A stretch of 64,000 nt of DNA from Amphiscolops sp. MND2022 (lineage: Eukaryota): NCBI GenBank assembly GCA_964187785.1, contig OZ076409.1, positions 13,146,001 to 13,210,000 on the forward strand, read 5' to 3'. Shown piece after piece: positions 12,591 through 56,013 of this stretch (its first letter is position 1; each line of letters begins with the position of its first letter). Under the pieces are notes generated by a model that saw nothing but the letters and a program-made list of their open reading frames with translations, made no database searches and had not been told where the DNA came from. Both the position numbers and the translations under genes were made by a program.

Positions 12591-12642
12591 AATTTAGTTT
12601 GATAATTGAATTCCTTGTCACAAAACAAAATAGAAGACAACC

Positions 12643-15600
12643 TGGCGCAGTCAGAGTAACGATTAAGGTTAGTTCAAAAAAACATAAACTCGACAAAACG
12701 ATATGGAACGGAACACAGAAACTTACCATTACAATACTTGAAAAACAAGACCAAACCAATGCAAACATGCGGTGGCCGAATTTTGTACCATACAAAAAGA
12801 TTACAAAGGACATCGACTTCTCAACCATGAAAAACAGCAACGAAATACTGCCACGATACCGTGATCAACTGGAGAAAATAAAAGACATATTTTTGGGCGA
12901 TCGGAAAAAAGCCATTGCGCAAATGACACAAAAGATCAGAGGAGAACCGAGTCAACTACAACTTTACAGAATATGCACATTGTTTTGCGTACATTTCACT
13001 CCAGAAAAAATTTTACAACATAACAGCTGATTTTTTCGACCTCAAACGAGAAGACAGGGAATAAACCTCAGACGTCTGGAAACGGATCCTAGAAAAGGAA
13101 AACGACTGCGAGTTTGATGCAATAGCTGGAGTTGAACTTCTGGGGTCAAAATTTCTATTCCTCATGAGAATTTCTACCGGTGACTATGATCCCAAAAAAA
13201 TAGAAAAAACTACTTGTCGGTGGAAGCAATAACCGACGAAATACACGAATATATGTTTGCAAAACTAAACGACTCACCGAAACCGAAGAGGAAAAAAGAT
13301 TCGCTACCTCAATCAATTAAAAAACTAGTTGACAAACTAACGAAATTCAAGATGGTTCGCCAAAAGTGTTCACAATAACAAGAAGGTCCGCCCGGGGGGA
13401 AAGAAACGTGCGAAGTGCGGGGGAAAAAGGTCTTTTCTCAAAAAGTTGCAGGTACAGTAAAATAGCGTAAACCACGTAGAGGAAGTAAAAAGACAGCCGC
13501 GGGGGAGAAGACGACTGGTCACCGGGCAGCTTCCATTCGATAACACAGAAGAGCCATTCAACACGCTCAACAAAAAATACAAGTGTCCGGAATTCTTCAC
13601 AGTTACCACATTGGTCAACCGCCAGGCAATCAAATTCAACATAGACAGCGGTCGGTTCATTGGTAACTTTATTACCGATGTCGCATTTTAAGACAATATC
13701 ACCATTACGCCTACTGGAAACGACAACCGGATCAACTTGAAGGAAAAACACTGGCAAAAATCGAAATCGACGAAAAACAGAAACGTCTGGAAGTTCTGGT
13801 AATAACAAAGAAAATAAATCCCTTACCAGGCTTGCACTGATTGAAGAAGCGAGGGATAACACAGGATACCGCTACTCCAGATACAAAAAATTAAACATGT
13901 GAAAAAAGACCCAGATATAAAAACGCTAAAACACTGAAACAGAAATTGAAAAAATTGTTCTACTAAAACCACAAATTAAAGGATTGGAAGTAAAAGTACA
14001 ATTGAAGGAAGATGCAATATTCAAACAACAAAAAAGAAGACAACGATCCGTCGATAGGAAAATAGAAACGCTGAAGACACACACACGGCCATATTGGAAA
14101 AGCGAATACCATTGATAGAAAATCCTTGGTAAATCCGGCCGCCATCAGAATAAAAAAAGAATTGGTGAAAATTACACAAGACTCACGCGAAATAGCTAGC
14201 CGAAATTACTGTGACGAGAAACGCTCAAAAGCCAAATATGGAAGAGCCAGTTTCGAGAATGTCAGGACGAATCGCAGACAGCCCGGCAGACGAAATAAAG
14301 ATCTCTTAATGTGATTTGGACTATGAATAGGGCCAAAGTTTTTCATCGAGAGAAGCCCGAAACTTATGAATGTTTGCCGTAACCAGTGTCTTCACTGGGT
14401 ATTACCGTTCCCTTGAGGCTTGGACAGCTTTGCGAACATACCGACAATCTTCCAAACAAATCACCAACCACTGGACAATAAACACCTAGCATGGTTTAGA
14501 CGGCATATTGGTGGGAAAATAGGCTCAAAAGAACAACATGAAAAACTACTTGTTGTTTTAACCGTGCTGGAAACCTCAGATAAAGATTGAGCGAAAGCGA
14601 ATCCAAAAATTTCAGATCGGGGATTGAATGGATCGGTCACAGTTTTGACCAGAACGGCCGCTACAAGACAAGTTATTGGCGACAAAAAACTGAGAAGGCT
14701 CAAAAACGAAAAAGAACACATGTCGTTTTTTGAGGCCATTCAATACCTATCCAAATTCATTGATAATCCCGGAACACAACCACTGAAGAAAAAAACGAAT
14801 GGAAATGGACGGAAGAGCACATAAAAGTTTTTGAAAATTTTCAACAAAAAAGACGGCAATACCGTGTCTGCTCACTAAATTCAAAGTACCTGAAGGTCAA
14901 ACCAATCGACGCCACTACAAAAAGCCTTGGTGAAACTTTACAGCATGAACTGTCTCATCCACTGAATCGACCGACTTGATAAGGAGATGGTGAGAAATTG
15001 TTAAACCCGGTGTTTATCGAATGACCGTGGGGAAGGTGGAAGCGATACCACAAGCCAGGAAGCTTGCGGAACTGAAGAAAAGTAATCCAAAAACGATTAC
15101 AGCAAATTAGCAGGAACCGCGGTCGATGAGACTCACGATAACGACGTGGCTCACAACAGCGCGGCTTTCAACCTTAATTAGGACGAGCGGAGCAATAGAA
15201 AGTCGACCCACTTGGGAAATGGATCAACCAACACCGGCTCAACGGAACCAAAACAACACCTGACCGGGGCCCTATACAGCCTCAAACAGTCAGGACCGCG
15301 ATATACCGATTCCCATGGAAGAAGAAGAGGTTGACTCCGAAACAGACCCATTAGTCTTGGAAGTGCCAGCGGTTAACTGGCCACAATACGTTGGGGTCAA
15401 AAGTGTTCGGCACGTGAAAACAATACACGCATAGAGAAGAGCAGCGGAGGAAGATAACAACTGGGACTTGGAACAGACCGTACGAGAAACCAAAGCGTTT
15501 TTCGCAACGGACTTGCAGCTGCTATTGACGGGAACCACCAATGATGCAAACTTGTAGAAGACACTGGTTTAGCTACAACGACAACAACTTGTGGTGTGGC

Positions 15601-17670
15601 TACAGAAGAAAAGACTATCCAGCAGTTTCGGTCTCGTCTTCCTAGAAGACACGATTATCGCCCAAAAAATCTCACAAGCACAATCTTTAGCTCTACATAA
15701 AAGCACCCCGCAATAAATAGACTGTCACTCGCAGCACGGCACTTTTGGTGGCCGAAGATGAGAGAGGCGATACCGAAAAATTGCGAGACATGCATCACCT
15801 GCAAAATATTGGCCGGTAAGATTGTTGAATCTAACATACCAAGCAGGACGAATTAACCTGCCGCCGATCAACGGTTTCTATTGGACGAGCCACAGAAGGT
15901 CACAGAAGCCAACGCCAATTTTAGTTTGTTACCTTATCAGCAGTTCTGTAAATGGCCGGCGGTGAGCTTTTACAAAACTACGGTCGGAGAAACAGCAGTA
16001 AAATTTGTTGAACGATATAATCAGTTGAACAGCACACCAAAAACAATCAGAACAAACGAAACCACCACTTTTACGGGCCGCCCTACCAACATTTTTTTAA
16101 AAGCATTATATCAAATTAGTACTCGCGACACCGTATAAACAAACACCCACAGGCCTAGTAGAACGAGAAGTTAGAACATTGAACCAACGTCTCCTGACCA
16201 TTATCAATGCAGGCGAAAGATTCGGTTAAGGCCTTGGACATGTTGTTGGAGCTAATGAGAAAAACACAGCATACGATGCTATGAGGATCTGCATTTGAAC
16301 TTCACTACGGTCGACAACCAAATCTACTGCTAGTTGTTTTTTATCCGAATATGCACTTCCAAATTTAGATTCCTGGTGTTTTTTTCTAAAAAGAGGTAAG
16401 GATATTTACTGACTCCTGTGAAATTTTAGGTCAGACTCCTTTGCCAGAAACACCGCCAGCTCCACTGATTGAGTATACATGTTAGGTATCGGTTTTCGCT
16501 GAAACGGAACTTTCTGGTGGGTTTTCTAAAACATCGAACTTCAACAGGTTGCTTATCTCCGTCGGGCACAAAGAACACTCCAAACGGAAAGATGTTTTAT
16601 AGGAATTGTATTAAGAAACCAATTGCTGAATTTACACAGGAATGCAGCATTAGAGGGGCCGTTTCCCGGGGACAGAGCCGATTTACAAAATAACCATCAA
16701 AACAGCAGGAGATAACCGCAAGCGAATCGGACAACGAACCAGACACGCCACCAATGGAACCGAAAAGTCCCAGCAATCCGAAGCAAATAGACAACACCAC
16801 TGTCAAGAAGAGCACATCCAGTCGAGAAAGACTGAGGCTGCTAAGAGACCGGCTCAGCTCAAACTCCTCTCTAAGTTCGTCGGGAAAACACAAGTACTGA
16901 AATAGAGCACTCGCCCGTTGACGATCGTTACCGCCCAAAAAATGACACTGAGATAGACCGTGCCATAGACGCGCCGTCATAGAACTCATAATTGGAGACA
17001 AAACGGTACGTTAATCAAAAATTTCAATCCACACCCTAACAGAGGGGAAAGAAACAGTCTAGAAATCTCCGAACTAGAACTAGCAAGCAACCTGAGCTCA
17101 TGTCCTGAGCTAGAAAGTGACCTTAAAACATGAAGAAAAAACTGTACGCATATCCAAAAAAGTGACAAAAACTAATCCGGTCGTTAGATTTGATACCCAA
17201 TATGTCATGATTACAGGAAACACGGTAACAATACTGAACTCGAAAGCCACACTGTGTCAACTGGACATAGAGCTGCGATGGAAGACCAGCAGCGATGAAA
17301 GATTCATCAACAAACAGCAACCAGAAGTTACGCCAAAATCCACACCAAGGCAATAACAAAAGCGTTGAACGGTTACCTGTCTACGAAACAATGGATCAGT
17401 GGAGGAACAACCGCCACAGGGAACATCAACATAACCCCATTGGCCGAACATCAACCAATAGTAGAGGTGGAATGTAGAGGATGACTCAGGCTGCTTAAAA
17501 ATTCTTTAGTCAGCATTTGGTAATCGTTGTTTTATCGGTACCTGGTAACTAAGTACAGATGAAGAGGCAGCTTAATCATTTTGAATTAAAAAACAAGAGC
17601 AATTTATTTTGATGATTGGATTCCTTTTATATAACAATACAGAATACAACACACTGCTTCACCTGTTACA
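12643..17670 (+). mobile_element. Decayed Ty3/Gypsy retrotransposon (gag-PR-RT-RH-IN order) with probable short 3' LTR
   Basis: PBS-like TGGCGCAGTC at 12643, protease-like FNIDSG about 13640, integrase Zn finger RHFWWPKM..CETCITC about 15740-15802, core KWP..PKTIRTN..FTG and GLVER. PPT-like AGAGGTGGAA then TGTAGAGG at 17473 to ...TTACA at 17670. Confidence 0.8.
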
Positions 17671-19976
17671 TTCTCCAAAAAGTGAAAAAGATGAGTGAAC
17701 TTAGAGAAATGCGTGCCATGAGTATTTCGTAAATTGAGAAAATCACATTTGAATTAGATCGTAAATTTCTATACTTCCGTTTTGTAGCAGAAACACCTAC
17801 TTCTTAATAACACCTATACCTTACCATAGCTATCAGGAATATGCGAGACGTTTTGTTGCGTATTCCCGCATTGTTTTATCTTTTGATTTTCCGCAATCGT
17901 AACTGCATACTTTAGAAATTTAAATTTTGATGCCTAAAAGTTTCAACTGCGTTTTTCTCAAGAGTTGACTCTAATTTTTTTTAAAAACGCGGTTACAAGT
18001 TTGTTGTTTCATGAGCTGTTTTTGTCATCGGTACGCCTCGTTTTTAAACTACCCCACTCCCCATTCTATCACCTGAGCAATGCAAGCCAACAGAAACACA
18101 TTTTCAGTAGTTTTTGAGCTTGACTAATTGAATGAACACATTTTAAAACCATACTAACTTTTTTCTAACAAGAAATGTTATGATGTTAGTCATTTTGGTA
18201 AACATGAATTTGCATATTTTTCTCCATATTAAATTACGTTAAGCTGTATATTTTGTGGAAAAAAACGCAATATTCTCACAGTCATGGTATAGACCAACAA
18301 ACAACTATTTAAGCAGTAGTACTAAAATGTGATATGTAGATGGGTACTTTATCTAAGCGTTACAGTTGCCAAAACGTCACTTCTAATTTCTCGGAACATC
18401 GTTTTATGAGTCACAGAGAACAAATAAGAAAGTAACATTTCAAGTCAATGCAACACAAATCTTTAATTACCGTCTGCTGCATATTGGTAAAACCATAGCT
18501 TACCAACTGTAACTGAGCCGTCAGATATTCGAATTATGGCAGCTGCTAATTCCAGACCTCTTTGCTCCTTTAAAAAATAACGAAGACAATTCCAATTTAG
18601 GTGGTTTGAAAAGTCCTGAGGTTAGCAATATTTTCATTTTCCACCCAAACTTCACGGAGAAGGAACGAAACACATTCGATAATAGACTGGTCTGTGGTGG
18701 CTTTGTGTCGTCTTGAATATCAAGCGGGTGCCAACTTTCGCCGTTCCCGGCGTGTTGATTGTTTCGCATTAGAAACACTTTTTATAGGAGCGAAACAAAA
18801 GAATGTGAAGAATTTATTTGCTTAGATCACTAGAAATTTCGTTTTCGTTACCTTTTACGAAACGATATCGCATTTTAGCTTATCTATTAGGAATCATCTA
18901 TTGTTAAATGTGCAATAATTGGTATTTATTATGTACTTTTAAATATGGTTTTGAGAGAAATACTTCACTAACGAAATTTCAACAACTCGTCGAAAATCCT
19001 CTAAAATCACAGACATTCAAAAACGTTACATATTGAAACCGGATCTTTTCTGTTAATTTCTCGAGAGTTGGTGGGTAAAATAGGCCAGGACTGGAAAAAG
19101 GCGTCTTGATGAGTTGATTGAATACAATTAACTTTTTGACTCAATTTCGGTGTCTTTTTAGGATCTCATTTTATTAATTGAAAAAAAGAGTAATTGAGAT
19201 GGTGAACGCCGTTAATTCTAATCAATACGAAATTTTCGACGACGAAATTTCTGGATTTGGTAAAACGACATTTCTGACGACGAAACTTCTAGCGACGAAA
19301 TTTCCGCCACCTTCTGCATGCAAGACAGCAATAGACACGCATCCCAAACTGTAAGTTATCATATAAAATGCCTACAATAATTCGAAACTCCGTTTTCATT
19401 CATCAAATGGGTTTCATTGTTCAGGAGATTTGGTAGAGAAACATAATCCATGACTTGATTTCTCCGGCGAATTCTATTAGCTGAATTGGCTTTTTTCCGG
19501 TGGCTCTTTGAAAGTCTGCATATCGTACGACTGCATGACTGCAATATTTTATGCTAACCATGTGAGCGAATGGGTAATGTCATCGTGGACTCACCAACAA
19601 TCTATTTGAGGTTTGCTCAACTGAAAACCTCTCAAGAAACGAAAATTGAGAAATAGAATTTTGGGAAAGTTTTTTGGATTTTTCCTTTAAAAAGGTCCCC
19701 GGCAAATCGCATAGTGCCAGAAACCCTAAGGAGTCCTCTATGCTCGCAAAACGTTTTTTAAAGTAAAAATCGAGGGGGGTTAGATGAAAACAGTTTAGAA
19801 AAAAGTCGCATAGTACCGAAAAAACGCCGTTTAAAAAATCGGATACAGCGCAATAGTTTTGAACCTCCGCTTCCTCCTTAGTGAAACCCAATATTTTTTG
19901 GATAAAACGTCAAAATTTTAGATAGAGGGCAATTTTTTCGAACCTCGACTCGACCACCCCTTTAATGAAACGAAAC

Positions 19977-21829
19977 TGTGGAAATTTTAGTTTTAGGCGT
20001 CTACGAAAACCCATTGCTTTTGCGCGAAGTACATACGCTAGGCAGAACTATGTTAATCATGTTTTTAGACCGTCGTAATAGTGAAAACAGCTGAACAGGC
20101 TGACAATAGCATGCTTCGATATGGCTTATTTGGCAACCTAGGTATTTACTTAGTAAACGAAACTTCTTAGGTAGAATTAACGAGCTAGTGAGTGACGTCA
20201 GTGATGAAGTAATTCGAATCGACTAAGTCGGAGTCGATCCCTGAGAGCGAATTTTGCTAAGTCCTGCTTAAGAGCAAAAAGATTCTAAGATACACTATGA
20301 AAAACCAAACATCACAAATCTTTAAACCCCCCCCAAACGGTTTTTCTCAAAGACTATTTATCGTAGAGACCTAAATTTTGGCACACGTATACCTGAGCTG
20401 TTATGCTACCGATCTTTGAAAACGGAACCGAGCCGCGGCCCCTCAGTCCCGGGCTATTAGCACCGGAAGTGTAAGAATTTCGGAACCCTACGACGCGTGT
20501 AGGAGCGGCATGGACCCTAAGTGAATAAACTTCGAATGTTATGTAAATAGCCACCGGATGACCCTAAGATCATGAAACTTACCCAAGATGTTCACCTAAT
20601 AACCCTAAGTAATATACATGAAAGATACATTAATCGGTCCACCACGCGCGGAATAATGTTTGTTTAAGGCACGCGGGACCGGACGCGCGGGCCCGACCGA
20701 TAAAAGACCTTTGACCTTGGCTTGTAATACCTCAAACGAACCGGAATGATGAATGTAAGCGATTAATAACGTGAAGGGAACCATATTTGTAACCCATGCG
20801 GGGGTAACCGCCTTAAGTAAACAAACGATACGCATATCATGTAACTCGAAGACCATTGACCCTAGGACGATATAACTTGGCATGTGGCAACATTGGATGA
20901 GGGCAATTAACTTCAAGGTCACAGATGGACCTCAAGGTCATCCTGGATGCAACCTAGACACATAAAGAGAAACTTATGATAAAACATGTAAATCAGCGTC
21001 TTTGCGTGATAATTTATGCATTACAGCCAGGCGGAACGATTCGCGATGCATTACGCCCAAAAGGACGGAAAAGTAACCCTCACACGTAGAGAGCATGTAA
21101 ACCATGTAACTGAAGGTCATTAAACGATTGGCTCGATATTGGAAAAATCTTGGTTGACTTGAATTATTATTGAAATGTGAACTTTGTACAACCTTTGTTG
21201 AAGTATTTGTCGTTGGCGGCGAAGTATGTCTGGCCGAAACAGAACTAAGGCGCTGCCATACCATAAAAGGAATGAAACTACATGAAGTCAAAAGCATGCA
21301 AATAAAAGAGCGACATCGGTACAACAAAAATGCGGCTGATGGATAAATATCTCAGGGAGGGAAAAAGAGACCGAATTGAGACAGAAGAACGATTACGAAG
21401 TTAAGAGTAAGTTGAGCCGCGTGCGGGCAAGAAACCTACTCGAGATCGAATTTGACTTAACTGCTTCGTGAGAGCAGCGAATAAGTTACAAGTCCGGGAC
21501 TTGGAAATCTTTGAGTGAATCGTGATTTTGGCACAGTCTTGTCGAGTTATTGTATATAATTCATTCACCTGCTGGGCTATTGTTATTTGATTGAGAGTTT
21601 GTATACTGTGGAAACCTTCGACTTGTTATATCCAGATAACTCCTGAATTAGAGTTTTAACTGCAAGTAACTTTTCCATAGCATTTTTGGAGTCGAAACTT
21701 GAGCACTGGAGAGACTTTGTGAAAAGAGTACGCGATACGTGAACGAAACTTACTCACCAAAAACAAAACCTTTCTGTTAGAATCGAGCCATTGGGATCTC
21801 TCTCCAACCCACTAGCAAAAATTTCTACA
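19977..21829 (+). repeat. 5' LTR (1853 bp)
   Basis: TG...CA ends with a 12-bp imperfect terminal inverted repeat. Colinear with 26719-28374. Confidence 0.97.
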
Positions 21830-21830
21830 G

Positions 21831-21848
21831 TGGCGCTCCTGGGTGGGC
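21831..21848 (+). promoter_or_regulatory. Primer binding site, probably tRNA-Asn
   Basis: TGGCGCTCCTGGGTGGGC lies 1 nt after the LTR end. It is complementary to a tRNA 3' end ...GCCCACCCAGGAGCG-CCA, which resembles animal tRNA-Asn(GTT). Confidence 0.8.
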
Positions 21849-22031
21849 AATTTTCGTAATTCTGTATCGCTGTTATTTTGGAATTGTTTTACTGGGACTG
21901 TAATCCCTTGACGACGCGATCAAAACAAGCACATTATCTGATGAGGTTGATCGACTGAGAACGTTTTCGTACAACAGAACAAAGAGGTATCTCTATTGCA
22001 ACTAGTTGGTGCCTGAAGTAACGCCGTGGGT

Positions 22032-23816
22032 ATGGAAGACGAACAGCGACTTGCAATAATGGAGGCTGTCGCCCAAGGGGTGATACAGGGCCTCAACGGG
22101 AATGAGAATCGGCTGTTTGGCAATGGAGCAATCAGACCTGACAGCTTCCCCTCGCAGAACTATCCAGATTGGTCCCAATGGAAAACGCACTTTTACAGAG
22201 TTGGCAGAGCCAACGGATGGACTGAGTTGCAAGGTCTGCAAGCTGTGCCTGTGTGCTTGATTGGGTACGCATTAGACGAGTACAACGCTGCGCCTCGAGA
22301 ACTGAGAGAGCAAGTGGATGGGGAAGATGCACCTACGTTAGCTGCACTATTCAATCACCTGGGTAGAGAAATGGGGATGATGCGAAACGACCGTCTGGGG
22401 AAAGCAGAATTTAGAAAACTTCGACAACAACCAGAGGAAACCCTGAGGGAATTTGCCGGACGAGTGAGAAACATTGGAAAGATTGCCTACTCGGAGAAGG
22501 ACCCAAACACGAGAGACGAGTTGTTTCGGGAGAAGTTTCTCGAGGGTTTGAGCGATGTACAACTGGAAGTTCAGTTGTTGAAAGAAAACCCACAAACATT
22601 TGGGGATCTAGTGAACAGGGCCGTTGACTTGGAAGTTATTGCTCGAACAACACGTGGCCGTTCACGGAATGAACAAGAGAGGTACGAAGAGTTTGGAAGG
22701 CAGCAAGACTCAAGTTGTGAGTTCCGTGGTTATTCACCCGAACCGTGGAAAGAGGGGAAACACCAGCTCACAAGAAGAATGGACCAGATGACACAGATGA
22801 TGATGACGTTCATGGAAACTCTGTCAACAACTGTGAGGCCTGAGAAGCAGGCTGGGATGACAGACCCACCCAAACGTGAGGCCACCCTTGTGGCGACCGA
22901 ACAAAAATTCAAGGGGAATGGCGGGTTTGTAGCCGATATCTGCCCTGTTTGCGATGGTTTTGGACATTTTCCCCAGCAATGCCCCAAACGGCAGGTGATG
23001 GTCGAAGACGCTCCTGAGGTGCACGGGAAGTTGACAAGAGAGAAAGCTGCACAAATTGTTGAGAGGGCCGGCTTAGCAATTGAAAGAAAGGCGCTGAACG
23101 CTGTGTGTGTGGTAGACTGTTCTGGTTATAACAGCGGTGTTTTTGTGAAAGCCCGAATTGAGGGAAGAGAGATGGACATTTTGTTGGACACGGGAGCTGG
23201 CGTGAACGTGGTGGACTCAAGTACAATGGAATCGCTTAGACCCCCTGATGAGGTCAAAGAATTATGTGGAGAGTTGCGGTCTGTAGACGGTCAACCAGTG
23301 ACGACTAAAGGATTAACCCGACTGAATTTGCAGCTGGGACCCATGAAGGAGCAGGAAGAATTTGTGGTGGTTCCCCACTGCAAGCCATCAGTTATTCTAG
23401 GCTTGAACTTCGTGAAAAAGCATAGAATGATTTTTGACTTTGGGAAAGACGAACTGTCCATACCTCTTCTGTCCTCAGAACCGCTGACATTGAGAGTTGT
23501 TGCACAGCAATGGGGCGAAGACGGAGGAAGTTGTTACCAGCGGAGCACCAGTGACAGCCGTGAAAGCGCGGAGACTGAACTCTCACGGTCGACATCCTCC
23601 ACTCAGAACTTGCGCGTTCCCGACAGCAAGAACAGCAAGAATCCAAGATGGGATTCCGGAGAGAAACCGCCACCAAGGCGATGGGATGCAATGATAGTGG
23701 ACACAGATGCTGATTTCCGCATGGTATCGACAACAGTCTCAGAACAGGAGCGATGGCAGCGGATGCTCCATCGTTACTACCCTGAAACCTCAACAGGTGA
23801 CCCTTTTTGGCAATGA
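22032..23816 (+). CDS. gag: Gag-protease polyprotein (capsid-like region, CCHC zinc knuckle, retropepsin)
   Basis: Uninterrupted ORF, first ATG at 22032. Gag-like motifs DWSQWKTHF..ANGW and LRQQPEETLREFAGRV, knuckle CPVCDGFGHFPQQC (CX2CX4HX4C), protease LLDTGAG and VILGLNF. Confidence 0.93.
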   Translation: MEDEQRLAIMEAVAQGVIQGLNGNENRLFGNGAIRPDSFPSQNYPDWSQWKTHFYRVGRANGWTELQGLQAVPVCLIGYALDEYNAAPRELREQVDGEDAPTLAALFNHLGREMGMMRNDRLGKAEFRKLRQQPEETLREFAGRVRNIGKIAYSEKDPNTRDELFREKFLEGLSDVQLEVQLLKENPQTFGDLVNRAVDLEVIARTTRGRSRNEQERYEEFGRQQDSSCEFRGYSPEPWKEGKHQLTRRMDQMTQMMMTFMETLSTTVRPEKQAGMTDPPKREATLVATEQKFKGNGGFVADICPVCDGFGHFPQQCPKRQVMVEDAPEVHGKLTREKAAQIVERAGLAIERKALNAVCVVDCSGYNSGVFVKARIEGREMDILLDTGAGVNVVDSSTMESLRPPDEVKELCGELRSVDGQPVTTKGLTRLNLQLGPMKEQEEFVVVPHCKPSVILGLNFVKKHRMIFDFGKDELSIPLLSSEPLTLRVVAQQWGEDGGSCYQRSTSDSRESAETELSRSTSSTQNLRVPDSKNSKNPRWDSGEKPPPRRWDAMIVDTDADFRMVSTTVSEQERWQRMLHRYYPETSTGDPFWQ

Positions 23817-24534
23817 TGACGTCGACGGAGGACGCGGAAACCTGAAGTACAAAGAGATCGAAGGAGATCTATTGTCGTCCAAAGGTTGTTTGGCTCACTG
23901 TGTTTCGGCAGATTTCCACATGGGGATCGGAGTCGCCAAGCAAGTCAAAACGAGGTATCCCACTACTTATCCGAAGGATGTCAACCACAAGAGACAGCCA
24001 GTTATTGCGCAGTGGATTGAAGGAGAACGTCGTTACGTGTATCACTTGGTCACCAAACAACGATACTTCGAGAAACCGACCTACGAATCCGTGAAAACGT
24101 CGCTGCAACAGATGAGAACCCACGCGGAGTGGTCTGGGGTCCACAGAATAGGCCTGCCGAGGATAGGCTGTGGGTTGGATAAACTGAATTGGAGTGAAAT
24201 ACGAAGCCTAATTAAAGACGTCTTCAAAGGGAGTCACGTAGCTATTACAGTGTATGTAGTCCCTCAGCAGATCCCGACTCCCAATTGCGAGACTGACGTC
24301 GAAGAAGTTGGAAGCAGAAGGGGAGAACGCCCTTCGCCGACACCTTCCAGCTCGGAGCACATTGACGACTGGTTCGACAGGAACCAACAATCAGAACTGG
24401 GAAAGTTCAAGGAGCGAGTGTTGCGGTCTCTCCGGCACAAGAGGAGCGAGAATGCAGGATTGTGGTCAGTCAAACGCGGAGCGGCTCAGCCGGATGCCAC
24501 TGGACCGTACAAACGTGAAAAGATGATGGCTTAA
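23707..24534 (+). CDS. TARG1/OARD1-like macrodomain protein (ADP-ribose glycohydrolase); domain about 23842-24261
   Basis: 275-aa ORF with EGDLL, LAHCVSADFHMGIGVA, RYVYHLVTK, KPTYE, LPRIGCGLDKLNW and ITVYV. These are colinear with human TARG1 motifs GDLF, LAHCISEDCRMGAGIA, RYIYYLITK, KPTYE, MPRIGCGLDRLQW and ITVYT. Confidence 0.9.
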   Translation: MLISAWYRQQSQNRSDGSGCSIVTTLKPQQVTLFGNDDVDGGRGNLKYKEIEGDLLSSKGCLAHCVSADFHMGIGVAKQVKTRYPTTYPKDVNHKRQPVIAQWIEGERRYVYHLVTKQRYFEKPTYESVKTSLQQMRTHAEWSGVHRIGLPRIGCGLDKLNWSEIRSLIKDVFKGSHVAITVYVVPQQIPTPNCETDVEEVGSRRGERPSPTPSSSEHIDDWFDRNQQSELGKFKERVLRSLRHKRSENAGLWSVKRGAAQPDATGPYKREKMMA

Positions 24535-25336
24535 AGAACAACTATCACTTCGGGAGATTGACGTGTCTTTGGTTAGATGTATTTGACCCGAAACTTCGAC
24601 TCGGCTTGACGACTTTACGAAACATAGTGAAACTTTCCTTAATTTTACGTTTTTTTGTTTTTGTTTTTTCTATAAATCAGGTATCGCGCCACCCGTGAAC
24701 ACCTGAAACCCCCCTGTGACGTTGTTTCGAAGCGAGCAGAAGGGAAGAAAGAATTCTGAATTAGCAGTGCTAGGTATTAGAATTTTGGGTATTACTAAAA
24801 CAACGGCGCCTCGAAACAATGCCACCCCCCCAAGGCTCAAGGCATGTTCTTGCGTATAATTTTCACGACCCAACGAAACCTGTTCCTGAGGATTCCCCCT
24901 TCCAAAGAAAGTATGTCTCTTCGACGAATTATGACCCCTGCCCCATGTTTTAATCGCCCTGAGACACTCTTCTATCGAAGCGGTGTTCCGCCTTGACTAT
25001 ATATTTTTTTATTATCTACGATCAATCGACCTCCCCTCCCTAAAATGACTACCCCGATTTAATGATGCGGTGCAAAATCAGTGTTTTGTACCTAGTGATG
25101 AATCGTAGCCCCCAGATTTGCTTTGATTTAATTTTGTGCAGTATTTTTTTTGTACATTCTTTGACCCCTGCACCCTTCTCTTTAAAGGGGGTCTAGAATA
25201 CTCGACCGAACCCTGAATCGTACTCGTTCGTAAGCATTAAAGAGGACTTTCTCAAATTAGAGGCAGAGCTATGAATACGGTATTTCAATTTTAACGTAGG
25301 AAGTCGATGATGACAGATGATGTTTATACGGATGAA

Positions 25337-25639
25337 TTAAAGTAAGAAATATGGAGGGGTTGGCTCCCGCAGAGCACCCCAGAGTTTTTGGCGAGCAATG
25401 AGGAGACGAAGTTTTTGCACTCCCACCAGACCAATCTGCGATGTGGCGAGGTTCCTCAGGAAGATGATGAATTCTACCCAACCAGGGCTAAGGTAGTCCA
25501 GACATAACGCGCCCAATTCGCCCTCCACGGTCAGCTGGACCTCGTGATGCTCTGCAATTTCCATACGGGTGATCTCGAACACCACGCGGAAGTACTGAGA
25601 TTCCCAATACAGTTTCAATAGGAAAGGACCTTGTGCCAT
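25337..25639 (-). CDS. Hypothetical ~100-aa accessory protein (frame open upstream to 25813)
   Basis: ATG-initiated ORF MAQGPFLLKLYW... in a GC-richer island of the element's internal region. Shares motifs with the 26059-26352 ORF. Confidence 0.45.
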   Translation of the reverse strand: MAQGPFLLKLYWESQYFRVVFEITRMEIAEHHEVQLTVEGELGALCLDYLSPGWVEFIIFLRNLATSQIGLVGVQKLRLLIARQKLWGALREPTPPYFLL

Positions 25640-26058
25640 GTTGTTATTCTCGTTCTGATTTAGGCGCAGAGGAAAGCGTATGGATGTATAATTAAGCAGT
25701 ACCGAAACTCCGAGCTGGCGAAAGTTGACTGTGGTAAAAGAGTAAATATGTCGAGTAAACAAAACTTCCAACGACGAAAATCCCACTTCATTTAATTTTT
25801 GATTCTTTGACATACTTCTGAATACGAATATCTAAACAAGTAAAAGGAGAACCATTTAAAAACAACCCCGTACCCGAATGTTGCCGAAAGTACAGGAAAC
25901 AATTGTTTGCTCTCTAAACAGATCTCGAAGCAGCCCGTCGAATTAAACTTCACGAGTACTAAAATTTCAGAATAAGCATTTTTGTTGGCACGAATAGCAA
26001 GTAAAGTTCGAGTTTGTTTAGTATTATTATCGATTGATTTTTTCACCATTTTGCGTTC

Positions 26059-26352
26059 ATGGCTTTTATGGGACTGTATATAAGCAATTGGTACTTACCG
26101 AATTGGAATGAGTACGTACGAGTAGTAAGAATCTTCTGCCTCTTCGACCGGGCACCCATGACAGTGGAAGTATCCACCGCAACCCGTGGGCGGCGAGAAG
26201 TAGTAATACGCCCGGGAACAGAGGAGTGGAGGAGTCTGTCGGCGCTCCTCCGCGATTATCGAAGAACAGCGGGTAATCTCAATGCAACGGAGCGAGGTGC
26301 ACTCGAAGAACTCATGGCTTATATGGGAAGCTTTTATAGATTGACTCAGTGA
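26059..26352 (+). CDS. Hypothetical 97-aa accessory protein
   Basis: ATG-initiated ORF, GC-richer than its flanks, with AATAAA a few bases after the stop codon. Confidence 0.5.
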   Translation: MAFMGLYISNWYLPNWNEYVRVVRIFCLFDRAPMTVEVSTATRGRREVVIRPGTEEWRSLSALLRDYRRTAGNLNATERGALEELMAYMGSFYRLTQ

Positions 26353-26706
26353 AAAAAAATAAATAGTATTCGGTGTGGTATTTAACGATTTTTGTTATCC
26401 AGGCTTTTCAGTTTTTTTTTACTTTTTTACCAATATAATCTACTACAAATACGAACTTGAGTATTTTTTTTAAATTCTGACTTCGGTGCTTTTTTTTCTT
26501 TATATGATGTTTAAATTGCCTACGTTATTTTTTTATATTGATTTTTACCCTTCAAGGAACACTGTAGATATTATCAACGATCCGTGTTATTGTTTTTTTT
26601 TGGAAATCATTTGCTCAATGCCCAACCCCTATCATAACGTGTATGTGTAACCTAGATCCCACGGTTCTGCCAAAGACGTTAAGTTTATTCGGGAGAACAA
26701 ACGTGC

Positions 26707-26718
26707 AGAAGGGAAGAG
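26707..26718 (+). promoter_or_regulatory. Polypurine tract
   Basis: AGAAGGGAAGAG directly abuts the TG of the 3' LTR. Confidence 0.9.
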
Positions 26719-28374
26719 TGTGGAAATTTTAGTTTTAGGCGTCTACGAAAACCCATTGCTTTTGCGCGAAGTACATACGCTAGGCAGAACTATGTTAATC
26801 ATGTTTTTAGACCGTCGTAATAGTGAAAACAGCTGAACAGGCTGACAATAGCATGCTTCGATATGGCTTATTTGGCAACCTAGGTATTTACTTAGTAAAC
26901 GAAACTTCTTAGGTAGAATTAACGAGCTAGTGAGTGACGTCAGTGATGAAGTAATTCGAATCGACTAAATCGGAGTCGATCCCTGAGAGCGAATTTTGCT
27001 AAGTCCTGCTTAAGAGCAAAAAGATTCTAAGATACACTATGAAAAACCAAACATCACAAATCTTTAAACCCCCCCCCCCAAACGGTTTTTCTCAAAGACT
27101 ATTTATCGTAGAGACCTAAATTTTGGCACACGTATACCTGAGCTGTTATGCTACCGATCTTTGAAAACGGATACATTAATCGGTCCACCACGCGCGGAAT
27201 AATGTTTGTTTAAGGCACGCGGGACCGGACGCGCGGGCCCGACCGATAAAAGACCTTTGACCTTGGCTTGTAATACCTCAAACGAACCGGAATGATGAAT
27301 GTAAGCGATTAATAACGTGAAGGGAACCATATTTGTAACCCATGCGGGGGTAACCGCCTTAAGTAAACAAACGATACGCATATCATGTAACTCGAAGACC
27401 ATTGACCCAGGACGATATAACTTGGCATGTGGCAACATTGGATGAGGGCAATTAACTTCAAGGTCACAGATGGACCTCGAGGTCATCCTGGATGCAACCT
27501 AGACACATAAAGAGAAACTTATGATAAAACATGTAAATCAGCGTCTTTGCGTGATAATTTATGCATTACAGCCAGGCGGAACGATTCGCGATGCATTACG
27601 CCCAAAAGGACGGAAAAGTAACCCTCACACGTAGAGAGCATGTAAACCATGTAACTGAAGGTCATTAAACGATTGGCTCGATATTGGAAATATCTTGGTT
27701 GACTTGAATTATTATTGAAATGTGAACTTTGTACAACCTTTGTTGAAGTATTTGTCGTTGGCAGCGAAGTATGTCTGGCCGAAACATAACTAAGGCGCTG
27801 CCATACCATAAAAGGAATGAAACTACATGAAGTCAAAAGCATGCAAATAAAAGAGCGACATCGGTACAACAAAAATGCGGCTGATGGATAAATATCTCAG
27901 GGAGGGAAAAAGAGACCGAATTGAGACAGAAGAACGATTACGAAGTTAAGAGTAAGTTGAGCCGCGTGCGGGCAAGAAACCTACTCGAGATCGAATTTGA
28001 CTTAACTGCTTCGTGAGAGCAGCGAATAAGTTACAAGTCCGGGACTTGGAAATCTTTGAGTGAATCGTGATTTTGGCACAGTCTTGTCGAGTTATTGTAT
28101 ATAATTCATTCACCTGCTGGGCTATTGTTATTTGATTGAGAGTTTGTATACTGTGGAAACCTTCGACTTGTTATATCCAGATAACTCCTGAATTAGAGTT
28201 TTAACTGCAAGTAACTTTTCCATAGCATTTTTGGAGTCGAAACTTGAGCACTGGAGAGACTTTGTGAAAAGAGTACGCGATACGTGAACGAAACTTACTC
28301 ACCAAAAACAAAACCTTTCTGTTAGAATCGAGCCATTGGGATCTCTCTCCAACCCACTAGCAAAAATTTCTACA
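26719..28374 (+). repeat. 3' LTR (1656 bp)
   Basis: Copy of the 5' LTR with about 5 substitutions seen by eye, a 199-bp deletion, a +3 poly-C expansion and a 1-bp deletion. Confidence 0.97.
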
Positions 28375-28817
28375 GAAACTTATTTCGGATATAACGTCAA
28401 ACGTTGAATGACTATTGTATATCAAAAGTTTTGAAAAAATTATTGGATATATATTATTGACAAAACCTAATATCAGACGAAAATTGAGAAGCATTTAGTA
28501 GGAGGTTCAGGAGTTTAGTAGTTCTGTAAAAAGTGTCCACTACACATACATTCTGTTATCTGACGAAAGAAAACTTGTCACTGTAACACTCTTGTGTTAA
28601 AATGCGCCGACTAAAAATATCAATTCTTCGATTTCTTTGTCTTTTGCGGAATGAACTTTGTATTGAGATCGAAAATAAAAGTTTCTTCATGAAAGGTATT
28701 GAAAATTTGCTTCCACCCAATTAATGAAATTTATTTTTGATTTTCAGGCAGTCTTGCCAAATTAACATTTGGTGCTTCGACATAATCAATTTTTGGACCA
28801 TGTCATCTATCCCCCAA

Positions 28818-40176: not shown

Positions 40177-40934
40177 TGGTGTGAAGAGAGAATGCGACCT
40201 AGAAATTATGCATGCGCTCTGCAAATTTGCAAAACCTTGATTAACTAAGTAAAGAATAGGATCTCAACATCTGCAAAAGACATCCGGAGACCCTGGAAGA
40301 AGTTTGGAATTATGCACAAGAACAGAGTTGGCAAGTTTGAAGAAAAAAATCGTTTTGAACACAGCGGGAAAAAACATGAATAAAACACATAAAAAACATG
40401 TTTTTTTTCGTTTGTATGTAGTTGTACTAAAATGCCATCGCAACGCGAAGTTTGCTGATATAGCGGGCAATCTGGTTTCGGCGATACCAAGTTTAGCCGG
40501 ATTGGAGCGACACTTTTCGACAATGGGGATGAGTTACGGGACTCTGAGGTCCCGTCTGGGAGTCGAAAAGGCCCGAAAGTTGTGTTTTTTGTATAAACAA
40601 CTGAATGTGATGTGATCTGTAAAGATTGGGAAAAAACATTTTTCGGAAAAAACATGTTTTTTTTAAAAAAAAAACCAATTCACGGAAAAAACACAATTTC
40701 CGTTTACTCAAACTTGCACAAGAACTCCGGTTGAGTACATAGTAAAACTTTACGACTCAATTCCTCGACGATTACAGCTAGTTTTTGCAAAAATAGGCTA
40801 TTCAACGAAATTTTAGTCTTTTTTCTACGTAATGGTATGTTTTGTATCTTTTTGGATACGTTTTGTTATATTTTTGATTTGATTTCATTTCAATGAAATT
40901 TTATACGGAGTTGCATTCTTTCTTCACACCACTG
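40177..40934 (+). mobile_element. Tc1/mariner deletion derivative
   Basis: TIR TGGTGTGAAGA(G/A)AGAATGC and its reverse complement ending CACCACTG|TA. Transposase C-terminus HPETLEEVWNYAQE..PVEYIVKLYDSIPRRLQLVFAKIGYSTKF*. A third TIR ends at 42589. Confidence 0.75.
40323..40716 (+). mobile_element. hAT deletion derivative (same family as 3439-3843) inserted in a Tc1 relic
   Basis: 8-bp TSD CACAAGAA. Reads PSLAGLERHFSTMGMSYGTLRSRLGVEKARKLCFLYKQLN. Right TIR truncated. Confidence 0.78.
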
Positions 40935-45478: not shown

Positions 45479-47005
45479 TATTGCTAATTGTGATATTGGC
45501 CAATTTCCATCACGGTGCGCAAGCTGCTTAGCAGTCAGACGCCCACTGCCATACAGAAGGTAACAAATTTTTTGTTATTTTTGTTACGACTAAAAATGCA
45601 GTCAACAGCAATAATTTGGACGCAATTTTGGTAACGAAATTATAAAAACCAAAATGAGCTCAGTTTAATCGATTTTACGTGCACCTTGTTCAAGGATTTA
45701 AAAAAATACAATAGAAAGTGATACGCCATACGATACATTTTAAAAAATACCAGATATTTTGAAATTATTGTAGAGCATGCATGTACACATGTATTGTGAG
45801 CATTTACATGCGGTGCATTTTCTTGTGCTTGTTTGCGGAGAAGATTGCGACATGATAGATGGCGACAAATATTGATCGCGTGATTATGTCTCTACCTGAA
45901 GAACCGTCATGACACGCAGGTAATCCTGTAAAAATTGAAAAATTGATCAAAATGATGGATTATAGAAATGATGGATGGAAAAAGATTGACTGCCGCTGAA
46001 CAAAAGGTCAATTGCGATGTTTCATATTTCCTTCAAAATGTAGATTTGATGCCAAATTTTGCAAATTGATTGATAGTTATATTGAACGTATGATTTTTTT
46101 GCCTTAAGCTCGATATGATGAGGATTCGTAGACAGTTCAAACGTATCTTTTCTGAAAAGACATTCTACATGCATTTGTCCTCATGAGAATGCTTAGTGCC
46201 AAAGATATTGATTTTCCGTCCATATTTACATACAGCTCAATTGTACTTCTTTCTACCGTTGCTCGCCATTTTTTTGTTAAAATGTACACTTCAACTACAA
46301 AAAACTCGTGATTCACAGTAGCAAACGCATCAAAGACATTTACAGGATGAAAGCGCTTGTTATATTTATCCAGCTTTTACTCCTAAGAAGCTCCTCATTT
46401 TTCTCTTCACCTAACCAAACAAATGTAAAGTTTGAATAAATAGAAAGGTGTTGTAACACTTCAACAACGGAATTCTCGTGGCTCTTTCAGCTTCATTACA
46501 TTGCCTTCGAAGTTTCAGGTTATTTATATTTTTGAATACGAATTTAAGTGGAACTTGTAATATTTATAAATAATTGTCCTGATAATCAGTTGACCGGTAT
46601 TCCCTCATAAATTTTTAACAATATAGAAAATTGAGAAAATACGAAAAAGTGGCTAATGTGTTTCAGTCTTTTCGTTATCCACTCGAAATTGCCTTGTTAG
46701 TCACCACTATATTGTTTGTGTCTTATTTCCCCCATGCCGTCGCGGGGGATAAGAAACAAGCTACAAATACCATTATGTCGACATCGTTTGCGCCGAAACT
46801 TTTACCCAAGAAAATGATTGATGTCGACATAATCCTATCTTTCACATATTGACTCCCAGTTAAAAGTTGCTCATTTTAATTTATAGCAGATAAAATTTGG
46901 GGCTTTCCTATACAATTTTAGCTTGTTCCAGAGGCGAATGTTTGCTTTTTTGTCAGAAAAATATCAAAAACCTGATAGTTTTTTTTGCTTCAAGTGTCGA
47001 AAAAC

Positions 47006-47566
47006 TAAAAGACTTGAGTTTGTGTCGTTGTATGAGCAGAGGTGTAAAAATTGATATTGTATTGAAATATATTGCAATTAAATACAATTAATATATTTAT
47101 TTAGTTGGAGCAAAAATACAATATATTTATTAAAATAAGGCAAATATTGTCAGAGCTCTACAATATATTGCGCAAAAAAATTATTCCAAAATAGAAAATT
47201 TCATTAATATGCATTTTAAACGGACTAGAAGTGAAAGACTATCAAGGGAGAAATTCACTAAGCTGTTCGCTAATTTCGAGAGTGTATACACACTCGAATT
47301 CAGCGAACAGCTTAGTGAATTTCTCCCTTGATAGTCTTTCACTTCTAGTCCGTTTAAAATGCATATTAATGAAATTTTCTATTTTTCAATAATTTTTTGC
47401 GCAATATATTGTAGAGCTCTGACAATATTTGCCTTATTTTAATAAATATATTGTATTTTTGCTCCAACTAAATAAATATATTAATTGTATTTAATTGCAA
47501 TATATTTCAATACAATATCAATTTTTACACCTCTGCTCATACAACGACACAAACTCAAGTCTTTTA
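47006..47566. repeat. 561-bp near-perfect palindrome without spacer
   Basis: Arms of about 280 bp centred on GTGTA|TACAC (47286/47287), with a few mismatches and one indel. Confidence 0.95.
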
Positions 47567-47890
47567 TTTATAAGTTCAGAAAATTAAGTTCTATTTAGAT
47601 TCATCTTTTAGGGTTTTAAGAGGGTTTTAAGCATTCATTTACAAGGCAAACATCCCAATGTTGTTTATTTGTATAAAGAAAGACTATAGTCTTTCTTTAT
47701 ACAAATAAACAACATTGGGATATTTGCCTTGTAAATGAATGCTTCTTTGCCCAATAAAATATTTCACAATCTATTGTTTTTCTAAAATATCGCAGGACAA
47801 TAATTACAATATATTTATTGTTGAAATTGAATCAAACAATATTTAATTTTTTTGAAAAAATATATTCAAATACAATATTTCACACCCCTG
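47037..47890. mobile_element. hAT-type MITE containing two fold-back palindromes
   Basis: CAGAGGTGT..ACACCCCTG ends and perfect 8-bp TSD TGTATGAG (47029-47036, 47891-47898). Confidence 0.8.
47629..47744. repeat. 116-bp palindrome
   Basis: 58-bp arms centred on AGACTA|TAGTCT, one mismatch. Confidence 0.95.
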
Positions 47891-55853: not shown

Positions 55854-56013
55854 CATAGAGTTGCTTAGCGGAAAATAATGAGCACCTAATTGGACGAAAT
55901 GATTAACGGCTCGAAATTCAAGTTTAATGACAATTGTCATTAAACTTGAATTTCGAGCCGTTAATCATTTCGTCCAATTAGGTGCTCATTATTTTCCGCT
56001 AAGCAACTCTATG
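55854..56013. repeat. 160-bp perfect palindrome
   Basis: 80-bp arms CATAGAG...CTCTATG centred on GACAA|TTGTC. Confidence 0.95.

Follow-up and report, generated by a model that had tools for sequence, protein, structure and literature searches.

A pol-less, probably Ty3/gypsy-type LTR element from a family with a predicted TARG1-type macrodomain in its Gag–protease reading frame

The LTR element in the window, the 64,000-nucleotide stretch of DNA analysed here, is best explained as a young copy, with slight damage, that belongs to a non-autonomous Ty3/gypsy family of long standing and with multiple copies. The main open reading frame (ORF) of the family, of about 830 aa, encodes Gag (CA-CCHC), protease (PR), a linker, a macrodomain and a tail. 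We assign this explanation as a whole a probability of roughly 0.7. Direct observation covers the structure of this copy, its lack of reverse transcriptase (RT), RNase H (RH) and integrase (IN), the one-ORF architecture of the family and the domain-specific conservation. The initial annotation had described a recent non-autonomous insertion with its own capsid and protease and borrowed RT and integrase, a view that our data support and extend to a multi-copy family. The animal-type genome that it assumed is plausible. It missed the most interesting feature of the element, a TARG1-type macrodomain (Table 1), of a kind that Pol proteins can carry as well.

Table 1. Features of the element and its flanks, in window coordinates.
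Feature	Position	Strand	Basis or remark
Left target-site duplication (TSD), 5 bp	19972..19976	+	GAAAC, identical to 28,375-28,379
5' LTR, 1,853 bp, TG...CA	19977..21829	+	sequence, LTR alignment
199-bp LTR segment without counterpart in 3' LTR	20425..20623	+	global LTR alignment
Primer-binding site (PBS)-like motif, begins TGG, 1 nt past 5' LTR	21831..21847	+	sequence
Gag N terminus and capsid (CA) domain	22032..22650	+	AlphaFold model, Foldseek
CCHC zinc knuckle, C-x2-C-x4-H-x4-C	22941..22982	+	sequence; profile matches to retroviral NC
Aspartic protease (DTG), same frame as Gag	23136..23462	+	Pfam Asp_protease_2 E 1.3e-10; tblastn
Frameshift in this copy	23730..23745	+	ORF1 versus continuous sister proteins
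Predicted TARG1/OARD1-type macrodomain, catalytic Lys and pocket glycines retained	23845..24258	+	PDB 2eee E 4.5e-29; DarG model E 1.6e-13
C-terminal tail and stop of family ORF	24259..24534	+	shared end in family proteins
Possible internal polypurine tract (PPT), second exact 13-nt copy of PPT core	24736..24748	+	motif search
Antisense 100-aa ORF, common across family	25337..25639	-	18 clusters, 66-96% identity
Candidate 64-aa ORF in GC-rich island	26158..26352	+	TATA-like motif 26,077; AATAAA 26,358
PPT, 12 nt, adjoins 3' LTR	26707..26718	+	sequence
3' LTR, 1,656 bp, TG...CA	26719..28374	+	LTR alignment
Right TSD (GAAAC)	28375..28379	+	identical to left TSD

The element was confirmed at 19,977-28,374 with a length of 8,398 bp. 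Two LTRs with TG...CA ends, a TSD, a PBS-like motif and a PPT, all of which had been annotated correctly, identify it as an LTR retrotransposon. A search for the PPT core with at most one mismatch gave three matches, every one of them within the element, when 0.06 were expected and 0 of 100 shuffles did so. The LTRs account for 41.8% of the length (about 42% had been estimated) and differ by 5 substitutions over 1,653 aligned bases, or 0.3% divergence. This substitution count had been noted before, but a 199-bp deletion, a 3-bp poly-C difference and a 1-bp indel had been overlooked; the LTRs are unequal in length because the 3' LTR lacks the 199 bp. No host tRNA was found within the 64-kb window, and Rfam gave no match.

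The coding region combines traits of Ty3/gypsy elements, namely a retroviral/Arc-type capsid recognized by fold, a CCHC knuckle and an aspartic protease. The AlphaFold model of CA (mean pLDDT 78) had the Arc, MLV and PNMA2 capsids as its top Foldseek matches (best E 1.8e-3, probability 1.0). ORF1, previously called undisrupted, aligns with the closest sister protein up to approximately residue 570 (~23,740), after which the alignment resumes in a different frame, and ends at 23,816, downstream of the shift. As the sister proteins read across this site as one uninterrupted ORF, we rejected a programmed frameshift linking ORF1 and ORF2; the shift may reflect either a genuine mutation or a fault in the assembly. 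The element is structurally complete in its cis signals, but the copy is damaged by the ORF1 frameshift and the LTR deletion.

A six-frame Pfam scan of 23,817-26,718 and tblastn of this copy with seven Gag/Pol polyproteins revealed neither RT nor RNase H nor integrase, and none of the 89 retrieved family proteins matched these enzymes, as expected of a non-autonomous LTR element. Thus, the reported lack of these enzymes in the internal region was borne out; as to pol remnants in general, the scanned region holds the macrodomain, of a type found in Pol as well.

The same architecture recurs in public proteins. Gag, CCHC knuckle, protease and macrodomain share a single ORF in 42 of the 89 retrieved family proteins, mostly of ~830 aa, and the stretch from the protease Asp through the macrodomain Lys is in a single ORF in 54 of the 89 stored. 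Long ENA contigs carry 15 clusters with 69-96% identity across the ORF2 match, and the member proteins number 174 with fragments included. Family proteins lie on contigs of 67 distinct sizes, and median pairwise identity among the 42 Gag-to-macrodomain proteins is 89%, so most of these are not allelic duplicates. JGI metagenomes, IMG/VR and GTDB yielded no locus of this family. We consider it very probable that the element belongs to a replicating pol-less family.

The antisense ORF received no Pfam, NCBIfam or Atlas assignment, and its low-confidence model (pLDDT 52) had no fold match. Its substitutions were not more conservative than neutral in five of five comparisons (P 0.09-0.39), and for this reason we do not count it as a proven protein. 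For the candidate 64-aa ORF, the exact sequence from three starts was absent from the protein collection, and no Atlas match of at least 0.9 was found.

The macrodomain is homologous to human TARG1 (PDB 2eee; E 4.5e-29 over 144 residues), with the equivalents of the catalytic Lys84 and the second catalytic Asp both aligned and those of the pocket residues Gly43 and Gly123 present. The catalytic partner in TARG1 is Asp125. Lys84 is catalytic in TARG1 (PMC8501950). Among family proteins, which are ~90%-identical, non-independent copies, the Lys was retained in 66 of 66 and the Asp in 62 of 63. At the end of the ORF, the last five residues are identical in 30 of the 42 in-frame members. Human TARG1/OARD1 (C6orf130), bacterial DarG and RNA-virus macrodomains share the TARG1-type sequence and the Lys84 and Gly43/Gly123 equivalents; by contrast, the domain predicted here sits inside a retroelement polyprotein. 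The domain resembles an enzyme that removes ADP-ribose, a hint that the family is equipped with a counter-defence tool.

Selection was assessed against subfamily P0015, which is 60% identical. Identity reached 81% in CA, 71% in the macrodomain and 58% in PR, compared with 39% and 49% in the two long linkers. Substitutions were more conservative than neutral in CA (P 0.009), PR (P 0.0006) and the macrodomain (P 0.008) and not in the linkers (P 0.25 and 0.70), a pattern indicating purifying selection on capsid, protease and macrodomain, not on linkers. It appears fairly likely that the macrodomain has been kept by selection as an enzyme. The zinc knuckle is degenerate in the distant subfamily, with 6 of 14 residues identical. 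As the PR-macro linker is still homologous to that of P0015 (E 8e-25), loss of RT would be older than the subfamily split.

Macrodomains in insect gypsy Pol are annotated in databases. The nearest Pol (cluster P0016/P0049, 137 members, also on long ENA contigs) has the order PR-RT-RH-macro-IN; its macrodomain (P0049) is 51% identical to that of the family and is placed as its sister in the macrodomain tree (support 94/95). The cluster differs in having RT, RNase H and integrase, in a protease (P0049) only 27% identical to the family's and in an ORF without Gag, and it is known from proteins alone. The Ty3/gypsy placement, made for an element without RT, is indirect and draws on the Gag-PR and macrodomain relatives P0016, P0049 and P0273, which have the order PR-RT-RH-IN. 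Because the nearest Pol carries a 51%-identical macrodomain in this position, the family probably lost the enzymes flanking the macrodomain on both sides: RT-RH before the macrodomain and IN after it would have disappeared from an ancestral Ty3/gypsy element with the Pol order PR-RT-RH-macro-IN.

Had the parent been ordered Gag-PR-macro-(other)-RT, a single 3' loss would have sufficed instead of two flanking losses. Macrodomain-pattern scans yielded 21 and 24 loci at 29-53% identity; among these 45, tblastn found RT-RH only in L013 and protease similarity only in L012, and Pfam added Gag and protease for L014. In L012-L014 and L016, the macrodomain immediately follows the protease or occupies the corresponding region, a clade of the family with macrodomains of the L012-L014/L016 type was not rejected by the AU test (p 0.12), and the linker preceding the macrodomain in the family did not significantly match its P0049 counterpart (E 0.35). 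However, the family macrodomain is 51% identical to the RH-macro-IN Pol compared with ~33% to L013, and the best tree joins it to the former, which makes the single loss improbable. Very unlikely, in our view, is an autonomous family whose other copies carry RT-RNase H-integrase as a second ORF after the Gag-PR-macrodomain ORF, lost here by internal deletion. Other copies are known from proteins alone, and the absence of a downstream RT-RH-IN ORF covers this copy and, indirectly, a 3,372-bp contig; this copy has already lost 199 bp in one LTR, and an unrelated gypsy with the order PR-macro-OTU-like-RT-RH exists (L013/L014). Yet the macrodomain of the nearest Pol lies between RH and IN, so RT would be expected upstream, where the family has a ~130-aa linker. 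Two proteins, P0096 (PR-macro-tail) and P0283 (antisense ORF), are recorded for the 3,372-bp contig, which is too short to hold RT-RH-IN beside them. No Pol with a macrodomain more than 51% identical to the family's was found, and 12 of the 36 listed antisense-ORF proteins lie on a contig of the same bp as that of a family protein, versus 0 of 13 Pol proteins. Among the best 7,999 candidates, the best Gag-PR match in proteins of 992-2,830 aa was 22% identical, a blank that is weak evidence.

In a pol-less mobile family, element RNA would be co-packaged with the Pol of an autonomous helper and reverse transcribed from the PBS and PPT, and the TG...CA ends would be integrated. Because the Gag frame also encodes protease and macrodomain, both would enter every particle at Gag stoichiometry, and the protease could release the macrodomain. 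The latter may then act as an active ADP-ribosyl hydrolase that strips host ADP-ribose from particle proteins or nucleic acid; we put forward a counter-defence role tentatively, at somewhat less than even odds. The domain might instead be kept by such a family for a non-defensive job, such as RNA binding or packaging or the general removal of ADP-ribose while particles assemble or integration is repaired, or it might be a folded passenger. RNA binding by human TARG1 shows no sequence specificity (PMC5928194), and the selection tests speak for a conserved fold, no more; this reading is nevertheless somewhat unlikely, given that Lys, Asp and pocket glycines are retained even in the 60%-identical subfamily. 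It is also opposed by the presence of TARG1-type domains in two gypsy lineages, each with its own position in Pol, which points to repeated capture. Host use of the Gag-PR-macrodomain protein could also maintain the ORF, by analogy with the zebrafish Bik-1/Bik-2 Gags (bioRxiv 10.1101/2024.03.25.586437 and PMC13269885), and many open copies exist. However, this copy is young and frameshifted, with its TSD present and its cis signals intact, and many listed cluster members are short fragments, as is typical of transposition turnover; host use, although compatible with the best explanation, is highly improbable.

Comparison with known systems narrows what is new. TR-GAG elements, as defined by Chaparro et al. 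2015 (PMC4350172), are shorter than 4 kb with one ORF that codes only for a GAG precursor. The label TR-GAG-like in the initial annotation does not agree with this definition in length (8,398 bp) or ORF content, as the family ORF includes protease and macrodomain and an antisense ORF is present. Gag-only elements, which it called mainly a plant phenomenon, are not specific to plants, as zebrafish Bik-1/Bik-2 and mammalian MaLR also lack pol. TR-GAG (PMC4350172) and the sugar beet GAG/PROT-only families (PMC13570524) share with our family the LTRs, PBS, PPT, 5-bp TSD and a Gag ORF with or without protease; they likewise lack RT/RH/IN, and a close autonomous partner was not found. The present element differs in length (8.4 kb against <4 kb), in its LTRs of 1.85 kb, in the additional enzyme-like domain joined to Gag-PR, in an antisense ORF present throughout the family and in a host that is apparently no plant. 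BHIKHARI Bik-1/Bik-2 (bioRxiv 10.1101/2024.03.25.586437) and ERVL-MaLR (PMC11359688) are also multi-copy pol-less LTR families of animals that carry a gag or gag-homologous ORF and depend on a partner; they are described as gag-only endogenous retroviruses, whereas here the relatives are of Ty3/gypsy type and protease and macrodomain are kept. Fish epsilon-like endogenous retroviruses with macro-domain ORFs (Basta et al. 2009, as cited in PMC4977317) share a macrodomain on an LTR retroelement, but as an additional retroviral ORF, whereas here a family without RT or integrase keeps the domain. Thus, Gag-only LTR elements in animals are known already, and the new aspect is a predicted ADP-ribose eraser, selectively kept and fused to Gag. 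In the Creative Commons PMC/bioRxiv literature we found no paper on macrodomains of Ty3/gypsy elements or of non-autonomous LTR elements, which is not proof of absence; the term 'macro' is absent from the Oikopleura Tor paper.

Families of this kind offer classifiers no RT or integrase, and annotation may mistake their ORFs for OARD1-like genes of the host. What such an element retains shows what matters, because a non-autonomous element keeps only what aids its own spread in cis or its own particle. In this family, the retained parts include a TARG1-type macrodomain whose catalytic site looks intact and which is under purifying selection across a ~40%-diverged lineage. Macrodomains of RNA viruses act against antiviral ADP-ribosylation (PMC7232374), and SIRT6 contributes to L1 silencing by ADP-ribosylation (PMC4695847); a retrotransposon-borne eraser makes ADP-ribosylation restriction of LTR retrotransposons testable. 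It is a doubtful but consequential idea that the satellite pays its helper: it would have discarded RT, RNase H and integrase, retained the eraser from between them and moved it, together with the protease, into the Gag frame, and the amount of eraser in mixed particles would then far exceed what the helper produces by itself. If true, this would imply that an invertebrate defends itself against LTR retrotransposons through ADP-ribosylation, and that the non-autonomous element is cooperative rather than purely parasitic.

The element is a real, young and damaged copy of a pol-less family that encodes Gag, protease and a macrodomain. The LTR termini, target-site duplication, primer-binding site (PBS; here a PBS-like motif) and polypurine tract (PPT) described in the initial annotation were all found, and LTRs, put there at about 42% of the element, measured 41.8%. 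The claim of about five substitutions between the LTRs also held (5 in 1,653 aligned bases, 0.3%), but their full similarity did not: in the LTR alignment, the 3′ LTR lacks a 199-bp segment of the 5′ LTR, a poly-C run differs by 3 bp, and there is one 1-bp indel besides. The insertion is young, yet it has suffered at least one large deletion or is imperfectly assembled. No second copy was found within the 64-kb window.

Features of the element (window positions)
Feature	Position	Strand	Content
LTR element	19,977-28,374		TG start, CA end, same 5 bp on both flanks
PBS-like motif	1 nt past 5′ LTR end		TGG-led
ORF1	22,032-23,816		Capsid domain, CCHC knuckle, DTG protease
ORF2	23,698-24,534		Human TARG1/C6orf130 match, E 4.5e-29
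Antisense ORF	25,337-25,639	-	100 aa; 18 clusters, 88 members, 66-96% identity
PPT	adjoining 3′ LTR		12 nt

An exact 13-nt duplicate of the PPT core lies at 24,736-24,748, 2 kb 5′ of the genuine PPT and just past a splice-acceptor-like, pyrimidine-rich tract ending CAG at 24,680; a further copy with one mismatch occupies 24,314-24,326. The exact duplicate is possibly an internal PPT or a trace of recombination. Many dispersed short repeat families flank the element. Elsewhere in the window, a GC-richer, stop-riddled stretch (~12,600-17,400) with protease-, RT-RNase H- and integrase-like fragments, including weak integrase matches at 15,662-16,220 (E 0.05-0.4), is probably an old, unrelated LTR element. 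Near-perfect long palindromes, MITE-like or foldback, occupy 47,003-47,569 (arms 177+112 bp), 47,629-47,744 (58) and 55,854-56,013 (80), and a 120-aa frame at 40,253-40,615 (+), without a Pfam match, looks like a hAT transposase C-terminal fragment.

The Gag part of ORF1 gave an AlphaFold model (mean pLDDT 78) whose top structural matches were the Arc, MLV and PNMA2 capsids (best E 1.8e-3), and the protease matched Pfam at E 1.3e-10. When 23,817-26,718 was searched against Pfam in all six frames, Macro was the sole match, in one frame, and tblastn with seven Gag/Pol polyproteins matched the element only at Gag, protease and macrodomain; RT, RNase H and integrase are thus absent, as the initial annotation had proposed. 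ORF2, previously taken for an anonymous accessory protein, instead encodes a TARG1-type macrodomain. It keeps an Asp that we take to be the second catalytic residue; TARG1 residue numbers were read off the alignment on an assumed protein length. Aligned to human TARG1, ORF2 has equivalents of Lys84, catalytic according to a passage of PMC8501950, and of Gly43 and Gly123, named as ADP-ribose-pocket glycines in part of PMC5928194. ORF1, described earlier as undisrupted, tracks a sister protein to about residue 570, and similarity resumes in ORF2; the window copy is therefore frameshifted near 23,730-23,745, through mutation or assembly error, and the earlier description is wrong. Unless that frameshift is an assembly error, this copy would yield Gag-protease without the macrodomain.

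Searching longer proteins with ORF2 gave 19 matches; 15 clusters, whose ENA contigs measure 38-865 kb, are close relatives and hold 174 member proteins, fragments included. The family set comprised 89 of 322 stored proteins, each with at least a 55% match to a sister protein over at least 60 residues; two were the window's own. At the protein level, on which these counts rest (DNA-level structure being read from the window copy alone), a single ORF spanned Gag start to macrodomain in 42 of the 89 and protease Asp to macrodomain Lys in 54, and none matched RT, RNase H or integrase. The 42 full-span proteins had a median pairwise identity of 89%, and 30 of them shared their last five residues with ORF2. 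Within proteins of 992-2,830 aa, the family Gag-protease had two matches among the best 7,999 candidates scored, the better one 22% identical.

A distant subfamily (P0015, P0063 and P0066; ~60% identical, on short contigs) has the same layout. Its protease-macrodomain linker is homologous to that of the main family (E 8e-25), so RT was lost before the subfamilies split. Since then the capsid has kept 81% identity, the macrodomain 71%, the short nucleocapsid-protease linker 63% and the protease 58%; the two long linkers stand at 39% and 49%, and the tail at 22%. Against P0015, three domains showed changes more conservative than neutral: the capsid (P 0.009), the protease (P 0.0006) and the macrodomain (P 0.008). 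The linkers did not (P 0.25, 0.70). The neutral reference is a single-base expectation, the test stands in for dN/dS and the P values are uncorrected for multiple comparisons. Closer members gave a weaker signal (macrodomain P 0.04 and 0.11; one linker comparison also 0.045); across 39 of them, mean identity was 93% in the macrodomain and 82% in the adjoining linker.

The antisense ORF showed no conservative-substitution signal in five of five comparisons. Contigs equal in size to family-protein contigs carried 12 of the 36 antisense-ORF proteins listed versus 0 of 13 Pol proteins, measured against 67 sizes from the family proteins listed, with the P0015 cluster and repeated sizes left out; equal size is indirect evidence for the same contig. 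One such pair, a family protein and an antisense-ORF protein, has a contig size of 3,372 bp, leaving no room for an additional ~3 kb of RT-RNase H-integrase. The antisense ORF and a 64-aa ORF at 26,158-26,352 (+) are divergently oriented and lie in GC-rich islands on either side of an AT-rich spacer; the 64-aa ORF has a TATA-like motif, and AATAAA 6 bp past its stop.

Among the 19 ORF2 matches, the sole RT/integrase-bearing Pol belonged to P0016/P0049, a Ty3/gypsy cluster of 137 members in whose domain order (PR-RT-RH-macro-IN) a TARG1-type macrodomain follows RNase H and precedes integrase. Its macrodomain is 51% and its protease 27% identical to the element's, and a 28-row tree placed the family macrodomains as its sister (support 94/95). 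The cluster may be related to the parent or to the helper. If its order is ancestral, RT-RNase H and integrase would have been lost on either side of a kept macrodomain. The domain takes a second position, directly after the protease, in an unrelated AT-rich metagenomic gypsy (L013:1427-4543, L014:101-2874) with a SAP-Gag and a Pol of protease, TARG1-type macrodomain, OTU-like motif (our reading of the sequence, with no Pfam call), RT and RNase H. Its macrodomain is ~33% identical to the family's, and because an AU test did not reject its grouping with the family (p 0.12), two-flank loss from the RH-macro-IN order is the favoured rather than proven route. A Leu-Asn pair is the usual gag-pol frameshift site; in 9 of the 14 related Gags examined, the stop comes 0-8 residues from such a pair at the C terminus, whereas the family ORF runs on into protease, so its in-frame fusion is probably derived. 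P0125, P0144, P0104 (whose cluster has one member), P0131 and P0139 are single proteins that carry CCHC-protease but lack a Pfam RT, and two of them run straight into an integrase C-terminal domain, suggesting other gypsy derivatives with deleted pol. Two Logan proteins (P0018, P0019) also contain TARG1-type macrodomains, one fused with a TBP domain and the other with a PHD finger.

An RNA with LTRs, PBS and PPT can be copied and inserted by a helper's RT and integrase. As the element keeps all three, its RNA could be copied and inserted by those enzymes of a putative helper. The family would supply its own capsid and, given the single ORF, as much protease and macrodomain as Gag. The likeliest job of the macrodomain would be ADP-ribose removal from particle proteins or nucleic acid, an analogy drawn from the macrodomains of RNA viruses (part of PMC7232374); RNA binding, for which a section of the TARG1 literature (PMC5928194) speaks, is the main alternative.

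The TR-GAG-like label does not fit: TR-GAGs, as an excerpt of PMC4350172 defines them, are <4 kb with one GAG ORF, and the element departs from both features. A pol-less, Gag-bearing LTR element is already known in kind, because passages of the respective sources describe GAG/PROT-only families as common in sugar beet (PMC13570524), zebrafish Bik-1/Bik-2 as encoding gag without pol (bioRxiv 10.1101/2024.03.25.586437) and MaLR as pol-less (PMC11359688), and a reference title within PMC3286476 names a gag-only Culex element. Fish ERVs may bear macro-domain ORFs, according to part of PMC4977317. Among the open-access papers searched, none turned up that describes a macrodomain carried by a Ty3/gypsy element or by a non-autonomous LTR element; Repbase-type descriptions could already record such a case. 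PMC6431247, on large transposons, gave no match for 'macro'. The significance of the family lies in its kept macrodomain, not in its missing pol.
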